This document shows positions 20,928 to 61,731 of a stretch of 64,000 bases of DNA, piece by piece. Location: the NCBI GenBank assembly GCA_050011195.1, contig JBEKJO010000002.1, forward strand, positions 3,288 through 67,287. The letters are read 5' to 3'. Position 1 is the stretch's first letter. Each line of letters begins with the position of its first letter. Position numbers and translations under genes: made by a program. The DNA comes from Verrucomicrobiota bacterium. GTDB lineage: Bacteria; Verrucomicrobiota; Verrucomicrobiia; Limisphaerales; UBA8199. The notes under the pieces were generated by a model. That model was not told the origin of the DNA and did not search any database. It saw only the letters and a list, made by a program, of their open reading frames with translations.

Positions 20928-22979
20928 ATGCGACGAGTGTTCCCAATCCTCGCCCTTTCCCTCGCCCTTGGCGCGCCGGCGGTGGAAACGACCCCGCCGC
21001 CCAAAACGGCGGATCTGACCGAACTGCCGCTGGAGGCGCTGATGAATATTGAGGTCCCGAAGGTGTACGCGGCGTCGAAGCTCGAGCAAAGCGAGACGGA
21101 AGCCCCCGCTTCGGTTACGGTCGTTACGGCGGACGAGATTAAGAAGTATGGCGATCGCACTCTGGCGGATGTCTTGGAGAGCGTCCAGGGTTTCAACGTC
21201 TCGTATGACCGCAACTACGATTTCCTGGGAGTCCGAGGTCTCAGCCTGGGTGATTTTAACGACCGCATCTTGCTGCTCGTTGACGGCCACCGAGTCAATA
21301 ACGACTACAATGACGGCGCGGCCATTGGCACGGACTTCATTCTGGACGTTGATCTGATTGACCATGTCGAAGTCATTCGCGGCCCCGGCTCGGTCCTCTA
21401 CGGTAACAACGCCTTCTTGGGGGTGATCAACGTGGTGACCCGGCGGGGCCAGCAGTTGAATGGCTTCGAGACTTCCGCCGAATACGGCTCATTTAACGCC
21501 TACAAGATTCGCGAGACTTACGGAAAGCTCTTTACCAACGGCGTCGAGTTGCTGCTCTCGGGGACGTATTACGACAGCGGCGGCCAAGATCGGCTGTTTT
21601 ACCAGCAGTTCGATTACCCGGCTTTGAATAACGGTGTGGCGCAGAACAAGGATGGCGATTCCTATGGGAGTCTCTTTGGCTCGCTGGGCTACAGGGATTT
21701 CACCTTGGAAGGCGGGTTCAACCGCCGCGACAAAGCTAATCCAACGGGGCAATACTCCCAAGTGGTGGACTCAACGCCGGAAATCCTCGCGACGACCTTC
21801 AACGACCCGCGCTTGCGCACGATCGATGAGCGGAGTTATTGCGCCTTGAAATACGCCCACAGTTTTCCCGAGGTGGTGGATGTGACCGCGCAGGTCTATT
21901 GCGACAGTTACACTCACGAGATTGGTTATCCGCAAACCGTGCTCGTTGGAACAAATATCGTATCGAGCAGCTTCTCTTCCGAGAGAGACATTGGCGAGTG
22001 GTGGGGCGCCGAACTGCAACTGAATAAACGCTTATGGGACCGGCACGTCATCACCCTGGGCGCAGAATACCGGGACGACTTCCTGCAAGATTCGCGGGTT
22101 GACGTTGAGAACATGCCGGACGCGGGTTCCAACACCCGGACAAACCGGCAGAGTTACGGGGTCTATGCTCAGGGTGATTTCGAGGTGCTGACCAATCTCC
22201 ATTTCAACGGCGGCGTGCGTTACGATCAATACGGCGATTTCGCTCCCGCCATCGATCCGCGGGTGGCTTTGATCTACAATCCCTGGGAGAAATCCACGTT
22301 CAAAGCCATTTACGGCACCGCCTTTCGCGCGCCGAGCTTTTATGAGTTTACCCAGGCAGCCCCGGGCCAGGTCCTCAAGCCGGAGGAAATCACCAGTTAT
22401 GAACTGGTGTACGAGCAGGACATCGGACGGCATCTGCGGTCTTCCGTCTCGGGCTTTTACAATCAGATGAACGACTTGATCGTTTTTAGCAGCGGGAGCT
22501 TCACCAATTTTGACGCGCAAACCAAAGGCGTGGAACTGGCCCTGGAAGGGTTCTGGCCCAGCGGAATTCGCGGCCGGGCGAGCTATTCGTTTCAAGAGAC
22601 CCGGGATACGGGGATTGGCTGGGAGGCGCCGGATTCGCCCAACCACCTGCTCAAATTCAATCTCAGTGTGCCGCTGGTCAGAGACAAAGTCTTTGCCGGC
22701 GTGGAATTCCAATACACGAGCGACCGCCGGAGCCTCCACAACACCACGGACCCCAACAGCGGTCAGCCCATTACCGTGCAAGGCGAGGAGGCCGGCGGTT
22801 TTGGCATCGTCAACCTGACGCTCTTCAGCCAGAAGCTCATTAAGAACCTTGAGTTCTCGGCCAGCGTTTACAACCTGTTGGATCGTCAGTATTCGGATCC
22901 CGCATCCCAATTCCATGTACAGGACGTTATCGGGCAGGACGGGCGCAGTTTTCGTCTCAAATTGACGTACCGTTTCTAG
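20928..22979 (+). CDS. TonB-dependent outer-membrane receptor
   Basis: Signal peptide, plug region (VTVVTADEIKKYGDRTLADVLESVQGFNV), long beta-barrel, C-terminal ...LKLTYRF. Confidence 0.9.
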   Translation: MRRVFPILALSLALGAPAVETTPPPKTADLTELPLEALMNIEVPKVYAASKLEQSETEAPASVTVVTADEIKKYGDRTLADVLESVQGFNVSYDRNYDFLGVRGLSLGDFNDRILLLVDGHRVNNDYNDGAAIGTDFILDVDLIDHVEVIRGPGSVLYGNNAFLGVINVVTRRGQQLNGFETSAEYGSFNAYKIRETYGKLFTNGVELLLSGTYYDSGGQDRLFYQQFDYPALNNGVAQNKDGDSYGSLFGSLGYRDFTLEGGFNRRDKANPTGQYSQVVDSTPEILATTFNDPRLRTIDERSYCALKYAHSFPEVVDVTAQVYCDSYTHEIGYPQTVLVGTNIVSSSFSSERDIGEWWGAELQLNKRLWDRHVITLGAEYRDDFLQDSRVDVENMPDAGSNTRTNRQSYGVYAQGDFEVLTNLHFNGGVRYDQYGDFAPAIDPRVALIYNPWEKSTFKAIYGTAFRAPSFYEFTQAAPGQVLKPEEITSYELVYEQDIGRHLRSSVSGFYNQMNDLIVFSSGSFTNFDAQTKGVELALEGFWPSGIRGRASYSFQETRDTGIGWEAPDSPNHLLKFNLSVPLVRDKVFAGVEFQYTSDRRSLHNTTDPNSGQPITVQGEEAGGFGIVNLTLFSQKLIKNLEFSASVYNLLDRQYSDPASQFHVQDVIGQDGRSFRLKLTYRF

Positions 22980-23018
22980 ACAGTGGCACGCGGGTTGCTC
23001 CCATTTTAGGACGTTGGC

Positions 23019-26000
23019 ATGAGAAATATGACTGCATTAAGCTGCCGGCTGCGACCAGCAGCGCTCGGCTTGCTTTGGCTCAGTCTGCTCCTGCCCAGAC
23101 CCTGTTTTGCCACCCCGCCCCCTACCATCCTTGTCCAACCCTTGAGCATAACTGTCCCAATTCTGGGCACGGCGACCTTTTCGGTGAGCGTTTACAGCCT
23201 CACCACGGTCAGCTATCAATGGCTCAAGAATGGCGCGTCCATCTCCGGTGCGACCCTCAGCAGCTTTACGATTGCCAGTGCCCAGGCCTCCGATGCGGCC
23301 ACTTACACGGTGCAAGTCAGCAATGCCGGCGGCACAGTCACCAGCTCCGGCGCGACCTTGACCGTACTCCTTCCGCCGACGATTACGACCCAGCCTCAGG
23401 ACCAGACCGTGCCGCAGGGCCAGAACCCTTCGTTCTCCGTCGTCGCAACCGGCACGATGCCGTTGAGTTACCATTGGCAGGCGACCAACACCGCCAGCGG
23501 CGGCTTCACCAACCTGACCAATGGCGGCCAAATATCGGGTGCCAACACCAACGTCCTGATTATTTCCAATGTGACGACCAATAACGCGCTGTTCTATCAG
23601 GTGATTATTACCAATGCTTCCGGTGCGGTCACCAGCAGCCCGGCCATTCTGCAGGTGGGTCCCTCCCTTCTCCTCGTTGACGTTCAATTTCTTGGCACCT
23701 CCAACACCACCTGGCCCAGTGGCAGTGGTTCTCCTCAAACCGGCGCGGCAATTTTGGGTGCCTCGGGTGATACCTGGAACCAGGAAGACCTGACCTATTA
23801 TGTCTATCCTGGAACGAACTCTGATATTTACGCGTCCAATCTGGTTAATTCAGCCAACGCTGCGAGCGGCCTCACCCTCACCGTAGGTTCATCCCCCAAC
23901 TCGGTTTTTGGCGGTCAGAATCCAAACGCCACGGCGACGGATCCGGCCACCACCAATCTAATGTCCAGTGATATTCAACAGTTCGCCTTGACCGCCAATG
24001 TGGATGTCTGGACCATTACCGTCGGCGGTTTGTCCGCCTATGCGGGTGAACAGTTTAATTTGGTGGTCTATGCCGGGGCGCCGAGTGCCAGAACTCAAAC
24101 GATCTCCGTGAGTGGCGGGGCTTCGGGCGGGAACACGAGCAGCGCCTTGACCACCAGTTCCACCTCGCGGATGCTCTCCGCCGGGGCGGGTGTCGCTTAC
24201 CAAATCTTCACGAACGGCACCCTGAACGGCAGCAATCTTGTTTTCACCGTCAATGGCGGGACAGCGGCGGTGGATTCCTATGCGGCTTTTCTCAATGGTT
24301 TTCAACTCCAGATCTTCAATTACCCGCTCATTACGACCCAGCCGGCCTCCCAGACAAATGTCGCCGGCTCCACGGTGCAGTTCAGTGTGGGCACTTCGGG
24401 CGGGCTGTTGAACTACCAATGGAATTTCAACGGCACGGCCCTGTCCGGCGACACCAACGCCACCCTGGCGCTCACCAACGTTCAGACGACCAACGCCGGC
24501 AGCTACACGGTCGTAGTGACGAACTCCCTGGGTTCGGCGACGAGCGCGGTGGCGACCTTGACGGTCCTTGTCCCGCCAACGATTACGACCCAGCCGCAGA
24601 GCCAGGGGGTGGCGCAGCATCAGAACGCCTCGTTTTCCGTCGTGGCCGGCGGCTCGTCGCCGTTCACCTATCAATGGTATTTCAACGCCTCAGCCGTGGG
24701 CGGGGGCGGGCAAAGCTCAACGCTCGCGCTCAACAACGTTGACACCAGTTCAGACGGCAGCTACGCGGTGGTGGTGGCCAACCCGGGCGGTTCAGTGACC
24801 AGCGCGGTGGCGACACTGACAGTCTATGTTCTGCCGGGAATCCAGACGCAGCCGCAGAACCAAACGGTGCTGCAAGGCACGAACGTTTCGTTCTCAGTCG
24901 TAACCAATGCAAACGGCACGCCGCCCTTCAGCTATCAATGGAATGTCAATGGCACAAATGTCGTGAACGGCGCCTACATCTCCGGCGCCACCAATGCCAC
25001 GCTGACGCTTAGCAATGTGCAACCCGCTCAAGCGGGCAACGTCTTCGTGGTCATTACGAACAACGCTGGCAGCATTAGCAGCTCGGTGGCCACGTTGACG
25101 GTCAACGTGCCGGCCACCATCACCAACCAACCACAGCCCCAGGCGGTGGTGGCCGGTCAGACCGCGACGTTCTCCGTCGGAGCAATCGGGACGGCGAACT
25201 TGAAATATCAGTGGTATCTGAACGGCTCGTCTTTGAACGGCGGAACAAGCCAAAGTTCAACGCTCGCGCTCGGCAGCGTCGGGACGAATAACGGCGGCAA
25301 TTACACCGTGGTGGTGAACAACAACTATGGCACGGTGACGAGCTCGGTGGTGTCGTTGACGGTGTTGGCGACGCAGCCCTTCAACCAGACGGTGAGTGTG
25401 GGCGGGAACGCCAGCTTCTCCGTCGGGGTGAGCAGCCCGGCGACTCTCGGTTATCAGTGGAGTTTCGACGGCACGACCCTGGCCGGCGCTACCCGTTCCA
25501 CGCTGACGCTCACCAATCTGCCGACAGCGGCCAGCGGCAGCTACGCGGTGGCCGTCACGACCCCCGCCGGAATCCTGGAAAGTTCCACCGCCACGCTGAC
25601 GGTCATCAACGGCTGGGTCGGCGTAGTCACCAACACCAGCGACAGCGGCGCGGGTTCCCTCCGTCAGGCGCTGCTCAACGCCAATGCCTATTCCGGCCCG
25701 CGCGCCATTGTCTTCAACATCCCCGGTTCCGGTCCCTTCACCATCAGCGTGTTGTCCCTGCTGCCGGTCATCACCAACTCCGTCATTATTGACGCCACGA
25801 CGCAGCCCGGCTATTCCAACACCAACCAGCCAGTCGTCCAGGTGGACGGCAAGTCATTGCCCGGCGGGACGATAGGCGACGGCCTGACCCTCACTGCCAG
25901 CGGCTGTACGGTCAAAGGTCTGGACATCTCCGACTTTCCCGGCAACGGCATCACACTGTCCAATGGCTCGGGCAGCGTGATTCAGGGCAACTTCATCGGC

Positions 26001-27575
26001 TGTGCCTTGGACGGGGCAACCAAACTTCCCAATGGCAACCATGGAATTATGCTCTACAATTCCGCGAGTAATGTCGTGGGCGGCGCCACCGCCCTCGCGC
26101 GGAACGTCGTGGTGGATTCAAAGAATGATGGCATTCACCTTGAGGGAACCGGGGCCTTCGGCAATCAGGTCCTCGGCAACATCATCGGCCTGGACCACAC
26201 CGGGCTGATCCAGGAAGGTGTGTCCGGCAACGGCGTCGTCGTCTCGAACGCCGCGTGGAACCTGGTGGGCGGCACGAATACCGGTGCCGGCAACCTCATC
26301 TCCAGCCACGGCGGCGATGGCCTGGACCTCGCAGGCAGCTTGGCTGGTTTCAACGTGGTTCAGGGCAACTTCATTGGCACCGACATCACCGGCACCAACG
26401 CGGCGAAATGCAATGGCAACGGCATCACTATCCTTAACGCGCCGTCGAACACCATCGGCGGCCTGACCTTCTCTGCCGCCAACGTGATTGCCTACAACAA
26501 CCAGAACGGCATCGCCATTAGCGGCCTCACCGCGGTGTATAACAGCGTCCAGGGCAATTTCATCGGCACGGACCTGACCGGCACGCTTAACTTGAAGAAT
26601 AGTCAGGACGGCGTGATCACGACCACCGCCATCAACAACACCGTCGGCGGTCTGGCGTCGGGTGCCGGCAACACCATTGCCTTCAACAACGCCGGGGGAG
26701 TCGTTGTGAGCGGCGGTCAATGCGCCATTTTGGGCAATTCCCTCTTCTCGAATGCCGGGAATCCCGGGGACATCAGCCTGCTCAACGCGGGCAACCCCAA
26801 CGCCGTGCCTCCCGTGCTAACGGGTGTGACCAACAACACGGGCGTGACCCGGATCCAGGGCGCGTTGACCAATTACCCGGGAGATGCCTACCGGATCGAG
26901 TTCTATGCCAGTCCCAATTCGGCCGATGCCAAGACGTTCTTGGGTGCGACCAACGTCGTCACCAGCAGTAGCGGCTTCGCTCTGTTTAATGTTTGCCTTG
27001 TCACCGGAAATATCACCAATCAATATGTGACCGCGACCGCCACGGATGTCGGCGGCAACACCTCTGAGCTTTCCGTCTCCAAAGCCGTAACGTTCAATCC
27101 TGCTCCTTGGATTGTCAGTAGCCCACAAAGCCAGACGGCGACGCAAGGCCTGAGCGCTGCGTTTTCCGTTGTGGCGAGCGGCGCGGCGCCGCTCGGGTAT
27201 CAGTGGAATTTCAACGGCACGGCTTTGTCCGTCGCCACCGGTTCCACCCTGACGCTGAACAGTGTTCAGACAAATAACGCCGGCAGCTACACGGTGGTGG
27301 TAGCGAACCCCTGGGGTTCGGTGACGAGCGCGGTGGTGATATTGACTGTCATTCCCCCGACTCCCCCGTGCTTCGGTGCGGCAGGGATGACTTCCAGTGG
27401 GTTCGCCTTCCAGTGTGCGGTGCCGGTTGGGTGCACTTACGTCATTATGGCTTCGACCAATCTCCAGGACTGGACCCCCGTTTTCACCAATGTCGCCCAG
27501 ACTGCGAGCGTGGTTATTACCGATCCTGGAGCCACTAACTGCAGCCGGCGGTTCTACCGGGCAATGGCGCAGTGA
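23019..27575 (+). CDS. Giant secreted protein: about 10 Ig-like (I-set type) modules, about 9 parallel beta-helix (PbH1) repeats, and a C-terminal RFYRA domain
   Basis: Signal peptide. Repeated ...Q.Q.V..G....FSV.A.G..P..YQW..NG....G.....L.L..V....AG.Y.VVV.N..G...S..A.LTV modules. Repeats of the NGI.L...S..V.GNFIG type. Ends ...STNLQDWTPVFTN...RRFYRAMAQ. Confidence 0.85.
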   Translation: MRNMTALSCRLRPAALGLLWLSLLLPRPCFATPPPTILVQPLSITVPILGTATFSVSVYSLTTVSYQWLKNGASISGATLSSFTIASAQASDAATYTVQVSNAGGTVTSSGATLTVLLPPTITTQPQDQTVPQGQNPSFSVVATGTMPLSYHWQATNTASGGFTNLTNGGQISGANTNVLIISNVTTNNALFYQVIITNASGAVTSSPAILQVGPSLLLVDVQFLGTSNTTWPSGSGSPQTGAAILGASGDTWNQEDLTYYVYPGTNSDIYASNLVNSANAASGLTLTVGSSPNSVFGGQNPNATATDPATTNLMSSDIQQFALTANVDVWTITVGGLSAYAGEQFNLVVYAGAPSARTQTISVSGGASGGNTSSALTTSSTSRMLSAGAGVAYQIFTNGTLNGSNLVFTVNGGTAAVDSYAAFLNGFQLQIFNYPLITTQPASQTNVAGSTVQFSVGTSGGLLNYQWNFNGTALSGDTNATLALTNVQTTNAGSYTVVVTNSLGSATSAVATLTVLVPPTITTQPQSQGVAQHQNASFSVVAGGSSPFTYQWYFNASAVGGGGQSSTLALNNVDTSSDGSYAVVVANPGGSVTSAVATLTVYVLPGIQTQPQNQTVLQGTNVSFSVVTNANGTPPFSYQWNVNGTNVVNGAYISGATNATLTLSNVQPAQAGNVFVVITNNAGSISSSVATLTVNVPATITNQPQPQAVVAGQTATFSVGAIGTANLKYQWYLNGSSLNGGTSQSSTLALGSVGTNNGGNYTVVVNNNYGTVTSSVVSLTVLATQPFNQTVSVGGNASFSVGVSSPATLGYQWSFDGTTLAGATRSTLTLTNLPTAASGSYAVAVTTPAGILESSTATLTVINGWVGVVTNTSDSGAGSLRQALLNANAYSGPRAIVFNIPGSGPFTISVLSLLPVITNSVIIDATTQPGYSNTNQPVVQVDGKSLPGGTIGDGLTLTASGCTVKGLDISDFPGNGITLSNGSGSVIQGNFIGCALDGATKLPNGNHGIMLYNSASNVVGGATALARNVVVDSKNDGIHLEGTGAFGNQVLGNIIGLDHTGLIQEGVSGNGVVVSNAAWNLVGGTNTGAGNLISSHGGDGLDLAGSLAGFNVVQGNFIGTDITGTNAAKCNGNGITILNAPSNTIGGLTFSAANVIAYNNQNGIAISGLTAVYNSVQGNFIGTDLTGTLNLKNSQDGVITTTAINNTVGGLASGAGNTIAFNNAGGVVVSGGQCAILGNSLFSNAGNPGDISLLNAGNPNAVPPVLTGVTNNTGVTRIQGALTNYPGDAYRIEFYASPNSADAKTFLGATNVVTSSSGFALFNVCLVTGNITNQYVTATATDVGGNTSELSVSKAVTFNPAPWIVSSPQSQTATQGLSAAFSVVASGAAPLGYQWNFNGTALSVATGSTLTLNSVQTNNAGSYTVVVANPWGSVTSAVVILTVIPPTPPCFGAAGMTSSGFAFQCAVPVGCTYVIMASTNLQDWTPVFTNVAQTASVVITDPGATNCSRRFYRAMAQ

Positions 27576-57017: not shown

Positions 57018-57167
57018 CCCGTCGGCATTCCGACTGGAAAACGCGCCTCTCCGACATTCTCATGCTCTACGCCGGCGTGGACGCCGCCACTCCGCGACTT
57101 CGCAATGGCCCTGGGCCATGGGCTTGCCGCCCCGCAATTTTGCTTCCGTTGGCTGGCGCCATCTGTT

Positions 57168-58175
57168 ATGCCCATTCTCATGGTGCGGACATTTTGGTTA
57201 GTCGTCGCCTTGTTGATCTGCGGGTGGGTTGCTCCCATGGCCCGGGCCGACACGTTTAAGCTCACCAACGGTGAGGAGATCACCGGTGAATTGTTGGCCG
57301 GGTCGGCCAATGACGCGGGGGTGCAGATCAAGGTGGGAGAAGATGAGTACAAACGCCTGCCGTGGGCCAGTTTCTCCCAGGAGGACTTGAAGAAGTTCGC
57401 TAAGGTTCAGAAACTCGAGCCCCTGGTCGAGCCGTTTATCGAAATAACACAGGAGGAGAAGATCAAGAAGACCGAGGTCAACATCAAACAACCCGCGCGC
57501 CTGGAACGGCCCGCCCCCCAATCCTTGCTCGGCGCGCTCTCTTCTTCCGGCCTCGGGCTGTTGGTGATGCTGCTGCTTTATGCGGCTAATATCTACGCCG
57601 GGTATGAGGTTTCCATCTTCCGGGCCCGACCGGCGGCGCTGGTCTGCGGCGTCTCTGCCCTGCTGCCGCTCGCGGGGCCGATTATCTTCCTGTCCCTGCC
57701 CACCAAGATAGCCCCGGCCGAGGAAACCTGGGAGACCGTGGGGGCCGCCGCCCCCGAGACCGCCGCGCCAGACGCGGTCAATCCGATGCAGGCGGACGGC
57801 GCGGAGCACCCAACGACATTGCGCCTGGCGAGTTCGGAACCAGCGGGCGCCGTGAGATTGGGGCATTTCGAGGGAGGGGAGGACAAGCCCGCCATTCCGC
57901 CTGCCACGAAGTACCAGCGCGGCCAGTTCACCTTCAACCGCCGCTTCTTCGAGACCAAGTTCCCCGGCTTCTTCGGCGTCATTCGTCGCGATGCGGACCG
58001 GGACATGGTGCTGGTCATCAAATCGTCGCGCGGCGAATACACCGGCCAGCGGATCAGCCGCATCGCCGCCAACGATCTCCACTTGCAGGTCCAGCGCGGC
58101 CACGCCTCGGAAGAAGTCATGATCCCCTTCGTCGAGATTCAGGAGATCAAGTTGAAGCACAAAGACGCCAAGTGA
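57168..58175 (+). CDS. Hypothetical membrane protein
   Basis: Signal peptide, two predicted TM helices (LGLLVMLLLYAANIYAGY, ALVCGVSALLPLAGPIIFLSL) and a C-terminal soluble region. No family recognised. Confidence 0.55.
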   Translation: MPILMVRTFWLVVALLICGWVAPMARADTFKLTNGEEITGELLAGSANDAGVQIKVGEDEYKRLPWASFSQEDLKKFAKVQKLEPLVEPFIEITQEEKIKKTEVNIKQPARLERPAPQSLLGALSSSGLGLLVMLLLYAANIYAGYEVSIFRARPAALVCGVSALLPLAGPIIFLSLPTKIAPAEETWETVGAAAPETAAPDAVNPMQADGAEHPTTLRLASSEPAGAVRLGHFEGGEDKPAIPPATKYQRGQFTFNRRFFETKFPGFFGVIRRDADRDMVLVIKSSRGEYTGQRISRIAANDLHLQVQRGHASEEVMIPFVEIQEIKLKHKDAK

Positions 58176-58176
58176 A

Positions 58177-58413
58177 ATGTCGCAGCAGTTTGGCACCTTC
58201 ACCGCCAGCGAACTCTATTGCCCGAAGTGCGGTCGCGCCCAGCCGGTCCGCGAAAGGCTCCTGTTGGTGCTGCCCAACGGTGAACTCCACGAGTTCCTCT
58301 GTTCCCGCTGCGCCACCTCGCTGGGCAAACGCACGGTGACCGGGCCGGCGGTGACGCCTGCGGCGCGCCGACCGCAACTGCGGCCCCCCCGAACCCGCCG
58401 GCTGCTGCGGTAG
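58177..58413 (+). CDS. Small zinc-ribbon protein, hypothetical
   Basis: 78 aa with CPKC...CSRC. Its ATG lies 1 nt after the upstream stop, which suggests coupling. Confidence 0.45.
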   Translation: MSQQFGTFTASELYCPKCGRAQPVRERLLLVLPNGELHEFLCSRCATSLGKRTVTGPAVTPAARRPQLRPPRTRRLLR

Positions 58414-58434: not shown

Positions 58435-59382
58435 ATGGCTGCATTGCGAATCGTTTTCATGGGCACGGCCGAACTGTCCTGTGACAGCCTGCGGGCGTTG
58501 CTTGCATCACCCGCCTTCCAGGTTGTGGCGGTGGTCACACAGCCGGACCGTCCCAAGGGTCGGGAGCTGAAGCTGCAACCCTCGCCCGTGAAGCAACTCG
58601 CCCTGCACGCCGGTCTCCCGGTCCTCCAGCCCGAACGCGCGCGCGATGAGGTCTTCCTCAGCGCCCTTCGCGAGTTGCAGCCGGACCTGATCGCCGTGGC
58701 GGCCTATGGCCAGATTCTGCCGCAAAGCATCCTGGACTTGCCGCGCTTCGGTTGCCTCAACCTCCACACTTCCCTGCTGCCCAGGTATCGCGGCGCGGCG
58801 CCGATTCAATGGGCCATCCTCAACGGCGATGCCGAGACCGGCGTTACGATCATGAAGATGGACGCGGGCCTGGACACCGGTGACATTCTGGCTCAGGCGA
58901 CGACTCTGATTCACCCGGAAGACAACTCGGAGACGCTGCACGATCGGCTCGCCCGCATGGGCGCGGAGTTGCTGGTGCGGACCCTGCCCGATTATGTCGC
59001 CGGCAAGCTCCTTGCCCGGCCCCAACCGGTCGAGGGAGCCAGCTACGCCCCTAAGATCAAGAAGCAGGACGGGCGCCTCGATTGGACCCAGCCGGCGCGC
59101 GCCCTCTGGAATCGAGTGCGCGGCTTGGTGCCCTGGCCCGGGGCGTTCAGTTGTTTGCCCGGCCAACCCCAACCGCACCTGCTCAAAATCTGGCAGGCGG
59201 AGGTCGTGGAACGCTCCGGCCAGCCCGGCGAAGTCTTGCAGGCCGACAAAGCCGGCCTTGTGGTTGGCTGTGGCCGCGAGGCTCTGCGCATACTGACCTT
59301 GCAGCGCGAAGGCGGCCGCCGTCTGCCCGCGCCTGAATTCCTCGCCGGACACCCGTTGAAACCCGGCCAAAAGCTGGGCTGA
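58435..59382 (+). CDS. fmt: Methionyl-tRNA formyltransferase
   Basis: IVFMGT...VVTQPDRPKGRG-like, NLHTSLLPRYRGAAPIQWAI and the C-terminal domain. Confidence 0.95.
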   Translation: MAALRIVFMGTAELSCDSLRALLASPAFQVVAVVTQPDRPKGRELKLQPSPVKQLALHAGLPVLQPERARDEVFLSALRELQPDLIAVAAYGQILPQSILDLPRFGCLNLHTSLLPRYRGAAPIQWAILNGDAETGVTIMKMDAGLDTGDILAQATTLIHPEDNSETLHDRLARMGAELLVRTLPDYVAGKLLARPQPVEGASYAPKIKKQDGRLDWTQPARALWNRVRGLVPWPGAFSCLPGQPQPHLLKIWQAEVVERSGQPGEVLQADKAGLVVGCGREALRILTLQREGGRRLPAPEFLAGHPLKPGQKLG

Positions 59383-59436
59383 GGCCCTGCGTTAAACCCG
59401 TCGAAAAGGGAGCCCGCTACCCATTCATCATTTGCC

Positions 59437-59465
59437 TTGACTCTGACATGGTGCCCCCGTAGTCT
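59437..59465 (+). promoter_or_regulatory. Putative promoter of the protease cassette (TTGACT-N17-TAGTCT)
   Basis: Hexamers read directly. Weak -10. About 14 nt upstream of ATG 59479. Confidence 0.2.
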
Positions 59466-59478
59466 CACTCAGTTTTGT

Positions 59479-60645
59479 ATGGGTTTTTACACAGAGTATC
59501 TGGGAATGCAACTCGACTTTGGCGGGCTGCAGAGAGAGCGAAAGAAGCAACTCGTTCAGATTTCCGAGCTTCGCGAGAAGCGCGCTGTTTTGGTGATCGC
59601 GTCTGACCTGCTCAAACCAAACAGCACCATTGATTACAGCGACATTCTTCCGGTCCAGGACCAACTCGCCAACTTGAAGGGTGAGGCGATTGACGTGATA
59701 CTCGAGACCCCGGGCGGTTTTGCCGAAGCCGCTGAAGACATCATTGCGCTGATTCGCGGCAGATTCGACAACGTCGGCATAATCGTTCCGGGCTGGGCCA
59801 AAAGTGCGGGCACAATACTGGCGATGGCCGGCGATGAAATACTGATGGGAAGAGGCTCGGCACTTGGCCCGATTGACGCTCAGATCGCTCAGGCTAACGG
59901 CAAGCGGTTCTCTGCGCATGCGTTCCTTGAGGGGTTGAAACAGATAAAGGAGGAGGTAGCGGGGTCAGGAAAACTCAATCCTGCCTACATCCCGATTTTG
60001 CAAAACATATCCCCGGGCGAGATCCAGCACGCTCAGAATGCGCAGGCGTTTTCAGAACGGCTGGTGGCTGACTGGCTGGAGCATTACAAGTTCAAGAACT
60101 GGGTACATCGGCGAGGTTCGGGCGCCCCAGCGACGCCCGCCGAGAAGCGTAAAAGGGCGGAAGAAATTGCCAGAAAGCTCAGCGACCAATCTCAATGGCT
60201 CACTCACGGCCGTTCAATCAGGATCGCCAAACTGGAAAGCGATTTGAATCTGAGAATCACCGATTACAGCAAGAACGCTGACCTCGATGAAGCCATCACA
60301 CGCTACTACACCCTCCTGAGGATGACCTTCGACACGAACATGTGCAAACTGTTTGAGACGCCTGCCTCTCAGGTTTACCGCTTCACCGGAGTCCAAAGGG
60401 TTCCGAGTCCGCCCCCGAAACCGATGCTGCACCAGGCGCAAAGCTTGAACATTCGCATCACGTGTGACAAATGCAAAACACCAATAGTGATGCAGGCGAA
60501 TTTCCTGCCAAATCTTGCATTAAAACACGGCAATGTCCCTTTTCCACAAAACAATGTCCTTCACTGCCCCAGTTGCAAAACCGATATAAATGTGGCAAAT
60601 ATAAGATTGCAGGTAGAAGGCCAAACTGGCAAGAAAGTGGTGTAA
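59479..60645 (+). CDS. SDH-family Clp-fold serine protease with C-terminal double-CxxC zinc ribbon
   Basis: ILETPGGFAEAAEDII...VPGWAKSAGTILAMAGDEILMG..SALGPIDAQ matches the serine dehydrogenase proteinase / ClpP-SppA fold pattern. The C-terminus has CDKC...CPSC. Alternative start at ATG 59506. Confidence 0.72.
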   Translation: MGFYTEYLGMQLDFGGLQRERKKQLVQISELREKRAVLVIASDLLKPNSTIDYSDILPVQDQLANLKGEAIDVILETPGGFAEAAEDIIALIRGRFDNVGIIVPGWAKSAGTILAMAGDEILMGRGSALGPIDAQIAQANGKRFSAHAFLEGLKQIKEEVAGSGKLNPAYIPILQNISPGEIQHAQNAQAFSERLVADWLEHYKFKNWVHRRGSGAPATPAEKRKRAEEIARKLSDQSQWLTHGRSIRIAKLESDLNLRITDYSKNADLDEAITRYYTLLRMTFDTNMCKLFETPASQVYRFTGVQRVPSPPPKPMLHQAQSLNIRITCDKCKTPIVMQANFLPNLALKHGNVPFPQNNVLHCPSCKTDINVANIRLQVEGQTGKKVV

Positions 60646-60646
60646 T

Positions 60647-60832
60647 ATGAAAATGCCTCAGCCCGAAACATTTGAAATTGTATTCTCAAAGCGCGAGGAG
60701 TTGTTGCAACTGGACCCAGAACAGGTCCTCGAAAGCGCAGAAATCATCGCCGCCTGCGAAGAGGTGCGGGAAGTGACAGATGTCTTTGAGCATCCCGAGG
60801 AGGAAACCTGTTTCACTTACACTCGCGGCTGA
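60647..60832 (+). CDS. Small acidic hypothetical protein, coupled to the protease gene
   Basis: 61 aa and rich in Glu and Asp. Its ATG lies 1 nt after the protease stop (TAATATG). Shares the lower-GC composition. Confidence 0.45.
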   Translation: MKMPQPETFEIVFSKREELLQLDPEQVLESAEIIAACEEVREVTDVFEHPEEETCFTYTRG

Positions 60833-60852
60833 CGAGTAGGCACGAATGTCGA

Positions 60853-60890
60853 GGCCGACCGTTACTCAGTCGGCCCTCTTTGCTTTTTCT
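60853..60890 (+). terminator. Rho-independent terminator of the protease cassette
   Basis: GGCCGAC (60853-60859), a 9-nt loop, GTCGGCC (60869-60875), then the T-rich tail ctctttgctttttct. Confidence 0.6.
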
Positions 60891-61072
60891 GGCCTTGCCC
60901 TCGACAAGCTCAAATCTGGTGAAGGAGTCCTGGAAATACGCCCCTCAGGCTGTTTCATAGCTCTTTTCCGGTTGCCCGTCTCTCCAGCTCTCGCGCGGTG
61001 TTTTCAATGCCGTCCGCCCTTTTTCCAGAGCCGGCCCCCTCCACGTGTAATCGGATGTTGGCAGCGTTGGAG

Positions 61073-61372
61073 TCAGGGCGGGGGCTGGCGGTGCGACCAG
61101 TAAAACGGACGCCGATGCAAGTGCATCACCGCTTTGATGTAAAGCGCGTCGGCGCGCACGCTGTAAACTATGGCGTAGGGAAAGCGGTGGAAATTGAGCT
61201 TGCGATTGTCACCCCGGATTTTGCGCCAGCGTTCCGGCTCGGCGACGATGCGGCGCAACGTGCGTTCAAACTGGTCAAGGAAATCATTGCCCAGGCCCGG
61301 CTGCCGTTCCTCATACCACAGCGCGGCGGCTTCCAGTTCCTCGTCGGCTTCAGGATGGCTGGCGATGCGCAT
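61073..61372 (-). CDS. Type II toxin, RelE/ParE family
   Basis: 99 aa from ATG 61372: MRIASHPEADEELEAAALWYE...FPYAIVY......I.AVMHLHRRPFYW. Overlaps the antitoxin 3' end. Confidence 0.78.
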   Translation of the reverse strand: MRIASHPEADEELEAAALWYEERQPGLGNDFLDQFERTLRRIVAEPERWRKIRGDNRKLNFHRFPYAIVYSVRADALYIKAVMHLHRRPFYWSHRQPPP

Positions 61373-61604
61373 GGAGCTTGTCGCGGATGTCTTGAACAAC
61401 TTGCTCCACCGGGCGGCAACTGACTTTGCCTTCCTCAATCTCGCGCGAGCGCCGGTCAATGACTTCCCGCCACTGCGTTTCCGCGTCGGCATCCACGGTA
61501 TCATCGAGGCTCGCGATGAGTTGCCGGGCCAGATACGCCCGGTCTTGTTCCGGCAAGGCCAGCATTTCAACCACTTTTTCAGCCGCAATGCTCATGTGGC
61601 TCAA
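61350..61604 (-). CDS. Type II antitoxin (addiction module component)
   Basis: About 81-84 aa and acidic. LPEQDRAYLARQLIASLDD...WREVIDRRSREIEEGKV is typical of the partner of ParE-like toxins. Confidence 0.72.
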   Translation of the reverse strand: MSHMSIAAEKVVEMLALPEQDRAYLARQLIASLDDTVDADAETQWREVIDRRSREIEEGKVSCRPVEQVVQDIRDKLHAHRQPS

Positions 61605-61660
61605 TCTCGGCGTTTACGGGCGTTCTGGCAAGTCTTAATGGCTTGCCGGGCCGCTACTCG

Positions 61661-61682
61661 CGTAAATCGTAAATCGTAAATC
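61661..61682. repeat. Heptamer tract CGTAAAT x3
   Basis: cgtaaatcgtaaatcgtaaatc read directly, between the TA operon and the O-methyltransferase gene. Confidence 0.8.
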
Positions 61683-61731
61683 TAACCCGCATCCCGCTTC
61701 CCACCGTCGACAATTCTGCTACGGTGTCCGC

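Follow-up and report, generated by a model that had tools for sequence, protein, structure and literature searches.

A stretch of 64,000 nucleotides from a Verrucomicrobiota bacterium (GenBank assembly GCA_050011195.1, contig JBEKJO010000002.1, positions 3,288 to 67,287; hereafter the window) carries a mobile cassette of 1,498 bp that is horizontally acquired and inserted between fmt and an O-methyltransferase gene (omt). The cassette encodes a ClpP-fold serine protease of the SDH type that ends in a zinc ribbon and, immediately behind it, a small acidic protein that is referred to below as the partner. The protease is a member of a catalogued family; neither its architecture nor its partner has a counterpart in PADLOC v2 or in the searchable literature, and the pair is a good candidate for a new toxin-antitoxin (TA)-like or anti-phage module. 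We tentatively infer, at somewhat under an even chance, that the cassette functions as a self-contained mobile two-gene conflict module of the TA or abortive-infection type. Its features, in positions of the window, are as follows.

59420..60917, forward strand: mobile cassette, 1,498 bp, made up of promoter-like region, protease gene, partner gene and terminator
59437..59465, forward strand: promoter-like hexamers TTGACT and TAGTCT separated by 17 nt, read from the sequence
59479..60645, forward strand: SDH-type ClpP-fold serine protease with zinc ribbon, 388 amino acids (aa), isoelectric point (pI) 9.04, stop codon TAA at 60643-60645
59803..59805, forward strand: codon of Ser109 (WAKSAGT), the predicted nucleophile, invariant
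59875..59877, forward strand: codon of Asp133 (GPIDAQ), the predicted triad Asp, invariant
60205..60207, forward strand: codon of His243 (WLTHGRS), predicted as the His of the triad and followed two residues further on by an invariant Arg245
60385..60438, forward strand: Pro-rich flexible linker, about residues 303-320, variable in length and sequence among homologues
60439..60642, forward strand: C-terminal zinc ribbon (Cys329, Cys332, Cys363, Cys366) and terminal helix, pI 9.4
60647..60832, forward strand: coupled acidic partner, 61 aa, pI 4.19, beginning 1 nt past the protease TAA
60851..60888, forward strand: intrinsic-terminator-like hairpin, GAGGCCGAC...GUCGGCCCUC, then UUUGCUUUUUC, from the fold of a 60-nt segment

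The limits of the cassette are drawn by a copy that lies elsewhere. Over exactly 59420-60917 the window is 90.4% identical at the nucleotide level (blastn) to contigs L081-L085, on which the cassette is flanked by ResIII helicase and copper-ATPase genes, not by fmt and omt, and encodes a protease (P0001) 92% identical to that of the window. The shared segment begins 59 bp 5' of the protease ATG and stops 85 bp past the partner stop. As homology is confined to this interval in an otherwise different context, the transferable unit is the 1,498-bp cassette itself. The composition of the cassette also sets it apart from its surroundings. The protease gene has a G+C content of 0.529, and of 0.625 at third codon positions (GC3), and the partner gene has values of 0.511 and 0.581, against a GC3 of 0.79-0.84 in the flanking yjeF, fmt, omt and downstream sulfatase-like open reading frame (ORF). 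Overall, the G+C content of the cassette is 0.53 compared with 0.62 for the window, a value undercut by only one of 314 sliding 1.35-kb segments of the 64-kb stretch and lying about 3.9 standard deviations under their mean.

The insertion site was compared among 80 relatives obtained by scanning metagenome contigs with the fmt protein. In the seven closest (L110, L112, L113, L114, L116, L120, and L122; fmt 73-87% identical) the gene order is yjeF, a 356-aa gene, a 78-aa zinc-ribbon gene, fmt and omt, and the gap between the last two is 35-123 bp, from which it follows that the window holds about 2.3 kb of extra DNA at this position. The protease, the small ORF and the ParE toxin-antitoxin pair that adjoins the cassette in the window are absent from all 80 relatives. 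Direct or inverted repeats, att sites and tRNA genes were sought in the insertion flanks and none were found; the 64-kb window as a whole has no tRNA genes and no Rfam matches. A first-pass annotation, made from the letters alone, had proposed that the cassette was acquired, and the empty fmt-omt site of the closest relatives together with the same 1,498-bp unit in another context bears this out. Its hand counts, 44 G+C in 100 nt for 60481-60580 and 61 for 58441-58540, are reproduced exactly on recounting, as is the shift of third codon positions toward A/T. A CGTAAAT heptamer occurs in three tandem copies (61660-61683) where the insertion ends on the right, immediately upstream of omt, and the equivalent place in empty-site relatives has other heptamer tandems, CACGCAA twice in L110 and CACGTTT twice in L114; these may represent a variable regulatory or recombination-prone element.

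The cassette carries its own promoter-like and terminator-like signals. The open frame of the protease extends back to a TTG at 59437, which instead belongs to the -35-like TTGACT hexamer. Homologues share the N-terminus MGxYxEYL, which places the true start at the ATG of 59479 and gives a protein of 388 aa. In the L081-L085 copy the -35 hexamer reads TTGACC and the -10-like AGTCT is kept. The proposal of a dedicated promoter thus holds as far as the hexamers and their conservation go; the promoter is weak, and TTGACT/TAGTCT fell below the threshold of a consensus promoter scan and was not reported by it. A clean terminator had likewise been claimed at 60853-60890. A GC-rich stem-loop is present at 60851-60877 with a U-rich tail after it, folding of the 60-nt segment gives -20.5 kcal/mol (z = -1.9), and the L081-L085 copy keeps the stem with a different loop. 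A simple terminator scan gave no report of the hairpin at its threshold.

Assignment of the protease to the SDH type, which had been suggested from the sequence, is supported by PF01972 (SDH_protease) at 54.4 bits against a gathering cut-off of 31.3 (E = 1.2e-14), in an alignment that is restricted to protease residues 81-153 and profile positions 90-162 of 286, and by the Ser/Asp/His set of conserved residues. It is Ser, Asp and His, in this order, that gave the SDH family its name. PHROG 11747 also matches (E = 2e-51), and the NCBIfam and PHROG families that match the protease are all generic or of unknown function. The NCBIfam equivalog NF047768 (Clp_like_SDH) scores 65.3 bits, under its cut-off of 250, though NCBI still gives this name to some of the homologues. 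Among models of related peptidases, ClpP (PF00574) scores 20.3 against a cut-off of 20.2 over just 54 residues, and both the NfeD N-terminal protease (PF25145, 30.9 against 40) and SppA (TIGR00706, 17.1 against 155) remain below their cut-offs. The residues S109, D133, H243, R245, C329, C332, C363, and C366 are invariant in 65 of 65 family members, and the first four are kept as well in three more remote homologues, which come from E. coli, Leptospira and a Gordonia phage. Ser109, Asp133 and His243 are accordingly the predicted catalytic set. The Pro-rich linker and CDKC...CPSC zinc ribbon described by the first-pass annotation are present; the ribbon has two CxxC knuckles and a weak match to the MJ0042-type CXXC model TIGR02098 (16.5 against 20.9). 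Neither a hydrophobic anchor nor a signal peptide is visible on inspection of the protease sequence, and the enzyme is for this reason taken to be cytoplasmic. Ten longer relatives were checked for domain fusions and contained SDH_protease only, apart from one fusion to SpoIIIAH.

An AlphaFold2 model of the protease (mean predicted local distance difference test, pLDDT, 93; predicted template-modelling score 0.78) has an alpha/beta core that extends to about residue 145, a helical domain at residues 146-300 that bears His243, a disordered linker with pLDDT below 50 at residues 309-314, and a zinc ribbon of four short strands and one terminal helix. Fold searches of the PDB returned 4KWB at the top, 3RST, 3BF0 and many ClpP entries at 13-20% sequence identity and a query-normalised template-modelling (TM) score of no more than 0.33, with the core alone common to SppA, the 1510-N NfeD protease and ClpP. 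Predicted giant-virus "serine dehydrogenase proteinases" in BFVD match somewhat better, at a query-normalised TM score of up to 0.5. The helical domain is specific to the family, and only the core is shared with ClpP, SppA and NfeD. The sole match in a sequence search of solved structures was 1510-N (E = 0.002), whose AASAGT Ser, the nucleophile Ser97 of that enzyme, aligns with Ser109.

With the SDH proteinases (PF01972/NF047768; MEROPS S49-like) the window protease shares the Pfam score, the order Ser-Asp-His and the giant-virus fold matches, to which this clade adds a divergent His-bearing helical domain, the Pro-rich linker, the zinc ribbon and an obligate small partner. It resembles SppA (S49) and ClpP (S14) in the alpha/beta core and in the position of the nucleophile Ser. 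SppA, however, is a membrane-anchored enzyme with a Ser-Lys dyad, and ClpP has the order Ser-His-Asp and requires an AAA+ partner, whereas the window protease has the order Ser-Asp-His, no visible anchor and no conserved AAA+ neighbour. With 1510-N/NfeD it has in common the aligned nucleophile Ser and the functional pairing of a protease with the product of an adjacent gene. 1510-N is itself a membrane protein with a Ser-Lys dyad whose stomatin substrate is encoded in the same operon; the adjacent gene in the cassette encodes not a stomatin but an unrelated 61-aa acidic protein.

The partner is the second constant component of the cassette. The first-pass annotation had noticed a 61-aa acidic ORF 1 nt past the protease stop, and this ORF, which starts at 60647, proves to be a conserved and coupled gene: of the 75 genome loci that could be evaluated, 74 have a homologous small ORF directly downstream of the protease (offset -34 to +43 nt), as do all 14 IMG/VR contigs with a protease at least 46% identical. 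The window copy has 16 Asp and Glu residues against five Lys and Arg, and is thus opposite in character to the basic protease. It belongs to no Pfam, PHROG, NCBIfam or PADLOC family; a search with the single sequence found 14 relatives and a profile search 121. Three blocks are conserved, namely an N-terminal [FY]x[IL][IV]Fxx[LM] that includes the strand motif FxI[IV]F, a central helix E..EI..LR.IV.E, and the extreme C-terminus, which has the form hydrophobic-Thr-x-Ser/Thr (FTYTRG in the window copy). Among 58 pairs the mean net charge of the partner is -7; counted back from the C-terminus, F, Y, M or L stands at position -4 in 45 of them, Thr at -3 in 48, and Ser or Thr at -1 in 46. The partner evolves about twice as fast as the protease, with a mean pairwise identity of 24% against 54%. 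The distance matrices of the two proteins are nonetheless correlated (r = 0.67, a value reached in none of 2000 permutations), which indicates that the two genes travel and diverge together. An AlphaFold2 model (pLDDT 73) shows a helix at residues 12-47 with both ends disordered, as is typical of proteins that become ordered when they bind their partner.

Proteases of this type are abundant and widely spread. A word-seeded search yielded more than 4,891 homologues, and those listed are nearly all 380-400 aa long and full-length including the zinc ribbon, with 55-60% identity in Bacteroidota, Planctomycetota, Fibrobacter, Nitrosopumilus and others. Together with the genome representatives the identities span 50-60% and take in Verrucomicrobiota, Acidobacteriota, Chloroflexota and relatives of methanogens as well. 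An exhaustive search of representatives of 50%-identity clusters gave 4,043 clusters with E <= 0.001, and 158 with E <= 1e-30; among the matches listed, about 40 full-length zinc-ribbon clusters stand on top, followed by a far larger set of relatives of about 290 aa in which the alignment ends before the zinc ribbon. Genome representatives extend the range to Desulfobacterota, Bacillota, Actinomycetota, Gemmatimonadota, Spirochaetota and several candidate phyla, and in the Archaea to Nitrosopumilaceae, Cenarchaeum, Methanomicrobiaceae and Argoarchaeum. Among 185,579 species genomes there are no more than 139 recorded matching stretches, a count that is a lower bound since peptide patterns seeded the scan. 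Identity of more than 50% between Archaea and Bacteria, combined with the patchy distribution, points to horizontal transfer.

Wherever individual loci have been annotated the contexts are consistently accessory, and the pair is found on or beside mobile and conflict-related DNA. Among cellular genomes it occurs at the end of a Mu-like prophage that abuts the host scpAB genes, at the edge of a Prim-Pol/HTH/GP3_package element adjoining recQ, about 8 kb from a DUF5906 element, and, in Nitrosopumilus, 3.7 kb from a phage integrase. Further copies are located in an island of two Mrr genes, HsdR-N and MazEF, next to a ParE/RHH pair, on a Leptospira plasmid that also encodes RelB and an Rpn nuclease, between a type III CRISPR locus and an integrase, and, mirroring the window, beside a BrnT/CopG pair amid housekeeping genes. 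Full-length relatives are also present on 17 IMG/VR contigs, in the vicinity of genes such as those for integrases, repressors and further regulators, Ant, terminase, portal and endolysin; on one of these (L197) the pair lies upstream of large ORFs taken as terminase and portal, and not between portal and capsid. The six nearest ORFs at 19 genome loci (113 ORFs) were profiled against Pfam and PADLOC. They contain 142 different Pfam families, none of which occurs in more than four ORFs, their PADLOC matches are mostly to generic helicase models, and no AAA+, ATPase, SAVED, sigma-factor or repressor gene is conserved among them. With neighbours that are heterogeneous and modestly defence-like, the association of the pair with defence islands is a qualitative one. 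The likeness to such islands that had been suggested for the cassette therefore survives in part: the pair recurs by TA modules, restriction-modification genes, CRISPR, integrases and temperate phages, and its nearest ORFs are defence-like to a modest degree.

Distant relatives that lack the zinc ribbon are encoded by phages and prophages as follows.

L101 4134-5975 and L214 2850-5780: SDH protease and 56-aa ORF of E. coli lambdoid prophages
L100 3878-4840: gene 31 of Gordonia phage BeeGee, a distant zinc-ribbon-less relative located after the tail genes

The E. coli relative (about 30% identity, 300 aa) occurs with its 56-aa ORF in 17-20 of 5,426 complete E. coli genomes. It is situated directly downstream of a cI (LexA-family) repressor gene on the same strand, and once beside HicAB; two such native pairs are WP_021518647.1 with WP_167851737.1 and WP_000081325.1 with WP_167580584.1. 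In phage lambda this position is occupied by rexAB, which is a positional analogue of the E. coli relative with no relationship in sequence or fold; the analogy applies to a distant relative with a different small ORF and not to the subfamily of the window. Other zinc-ribbon-less relatives are found in Porphyromonas gingivalis phages H3-H7, and a 2017 survey listed "DUF114" genes among the targets of Porphyromonas CRISPR spacers (PMC5570325).

If the cassette is a conflict module, its two products may operate as follows. Partner and protease would associate, and the protease would be inactive for as long as the partner is bound. The free C-terminal tail of the partner (hydrophobic-Thr-x-Ser/Thr-COOH) would sit in or beside the active site in the manner of a product, and its N-terminal strand and acidic helix would bind the basic protease or the zinc ribbon. 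Inhibition by the tail is something that we infer from its conservation and by analogy. Subtilisin prodomains bind the active site in just such a product-like way, and a structural precedent for the binding of a tail is B. subtilis SppA (4KWB), in which C-termini fill the active sites. The trigger, for which phage infection or loss of the element is most plausible, would remove or titrate the fast-evolving partner, and the freed protease might then cleave a target of the cell or of the virus that the zinc ribbon selects, with the result that the infected cell or the invader is arrested. The wider proposition, that the pair typifies a hitherto unrecognised cross-domain family of protease-based immunity or addiction systems, carried by temperate phages, plasmids and islands, in which a latent Ser-Asp-His ClpP-fold protease is plugged by the tail of its partner and directed by a zinc ribbon, is more doubtful than probable. 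With type II TA systems the cassette shares the 1-nt spacing of its genes, the contrast in pI (4.2 against 9.0) and in identity (24% against 54%), and the form of a mobile 1.5-kb unit.

Several observations weigh against this reading. The large protein is encoded first and the small acidic one second, the less common order among TA systems of type II; the partner has no recognisable DNA-binding domain. Protease, partner, ParE and its antitoxin are all without a match in PADLOC-DB v2.0.0 at E <= 0.1. Across the profiled neighbours no third gene is conserved, few are defence-like (helicases, ResIII, one Type ISP enzyme) and there is no clear enrichment. Tail position -4 co-varies most with protease residue 106, three residues before the nucleophile, but this is a weak hint, as phylogeny confounds it. 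Finally, in the NfeD/stomatin precedent the operon partner is a substrate and not an inhibitor.

This last point leads directly to an alternative that appears unlikely on the whole, in which the partner is a dedicated substrate or pro-protein whose tail is recognised and whose cleavage releases or destroys a regulatory fragment as the output. There are precedents in the cleavage of stomatin by NfeD/1510-N and of CalpT by CalpL, and 1510-N, which cleaves a substrate encoded in its own operon, is the nearest solved relative of the window protease by sequence. The disordered termini of the partner, the position of its most conserved element at the extreme C-terminus, and the tight coupling and co-divergence of the two genes would all suit a substrate. 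An internal cleavage site, however, needs no fixed distance from the free C-terminus, and the fast evolution of the partner and the acidic/basic complementarity of the two proteins are a better fit to an antitoxin-like binder. Nor is there a conserved downstream effector gene by which a signal could be received.

Distinctly unlikely is that the cassette is purely an addiction module that stabilizes prophages, plasmids and islands by post-segregational killing and has no role in phage defence. Its presence on a Leptospira plasmid, in prophages and at hotspots shared with ParE, RelB, MazEF, BrnT and HicAB, and its compact two-gene form with promoter and terminator of its own, are what such a module would display. 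The copy in the window, by contrast, stands alone as a 1.5-kb insertion in the chromosome, where there is nothing obvious for it to stabilize, and the copies in temperate phages lie near repressor and integrase genes, the E. coli relative being placed downstream of cI in a manner typical of exclusion genes expressed by the lysogen. Many TA-like modules act as abortive-infection systems, so that roles in addiction and in defence are not exclusive. Like the cassette, IetAS (a subtilase with an AAA ATPase) and CalpL-CalpT-CalpS (of type III CRISPR) combine a protease with a small or regulatory partner at mobile or defence loci, with protease folds and partners that are unrelated to those of the window pair. 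IetAS was first described as a plasmid-stabilizing TA system and later as an anti-phage one (PMC13069673).

A role in the life cycle of the carrying element, whether as a repressor or anti-repressor protease (ImmA/ImmR-like), as a counter-defence protease against immunity proteins of the host or as the remnant of a prohead protease of the ClpP-like kind whose acidic partner is scaffold-like, is quite improbable. Viral contigs and E. coli prophages do place the protease beside repressors, Ant and integrase, and there is weak hidden Markov model similarity to ClpP-related proteases of head maturation (39.9 bits for NF045542, along with PHROGs 94, 1684, and 53). Set against this, the copy in the window and many others have no phage genes nearby, no repressor is conserved beside the pair, and in L197 the pair is upstream of the putative terminase and portal genes, outside the interval between portal and capsid. 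As a candidate identity for the protease, the ClpP-related prohead or head-maturation protease was rejected, given a score far under the NF045542 cut-off of 120, the absence of phage genes from the insertion in the window and the distribution of the family. That the gene encodes an ordinary housekeeping or quality-control protease with an unusual composition, as might be supposed from the mostly housekeeping functions of ClpP-fold proteases and from its location amid the core genes fmt and yjeF, is highly improbable and was rejected on context and distribution, since it is absent from an empty fmt locus in 80 of the 80 closest relatives, forms part of a 90.4%-identical unit in another context, is spread patchily across domains at more than 50% identity and has copies in phages and on a plasmid.

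The first-pass annotation did not recognise the pairing as a described system, and neither PADLOC v2 nor the searchable literature contradicts it. For the Leptospira, E. coli and Gordonia-phage relatives PADLOC v2 returned nothing above noise. The searchable literature on SDH/ClpP-like proteases, on S49/DUF114 and on defence leaves the pair undescribed and makes tangential mentions only, PMC6563490, PMC8541194, PMC13092281, and PMC7159879 giving no account of a protease and partner of this kind; experimental work on any member of the SDH protease family was likewise not found there. Should the conflict-module reading prove true, the cassette would represent a new class of effector in the conflict systems of prokaryotes, namely a ClpP-fold Ser-Asp-His protease that is self-contained and bears a zinc ribbon, as well as a new mode of control by a separately encoded inhibitor that uses its free C-terminus, and would provide the first biological role for the SDH protease family. 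The family in question is an abundant one, with thousands of sequences in many bacterial phyla and, at more than 50% identity, in Thaumarchaeota and methanogen relatives. Because a relative is present in E. coli lambdoid prophages, the hypothesis is directly testable in a standard host, which offers a tractable experimental entry.

The DNA adjoining the cassette on its right holds a TA pair of a familiar kind.

61073-61372, reverse strand: ParE toxin of about 99 aa, Pfam match
61350-61604, reverse strand: Unstab_antitox/Phd-like antitoxin, overlapping the ParE gene, Pfam match

Pfam thus confirms the ParE-type pair that had been recognised by eye, as a unit separate from the cassette. Its GC3 of 0.67-0.74 is intermediate, and as it is absent from the relatives with an empty site and lies outside the segment shared with L081-L085, it is an independent second insertion into the same fmt-omt hotspot.

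Elsewhere in the window, the only other dip in G+C content (0.558, near 21.2 kb) falls within a 683-aa ORF in the region 20928-27575, which on inspection appears to encode an outer-membrane protein of the TonB-dependent-receptor type and is followed by a 1,518-aa protein with Ig-like repeats; this region has no sign of mobility. Upstream of fmt, at 57105-58413, a gene for a 356-aa protein without a Pfam family is followed after a gap of 1 nt by one for a 78-aa CxxC...CxxC zinc-ribbon protein (58177-58413), and since the two are kept upstream of fmt in many relatives they appear to form part of the syntenic core. Contigs of the same population encode a restriction-modification fusion of the MmeI/Eco57I type with 1,064 aa (L102 16106-19300) some 6 kb downstream of the cassette and just past the end of the window, and a holin-like gene and DUF883 genes are also found downstream, so that the neighbourhood beyond the window end is rich in defence and accessory genes.

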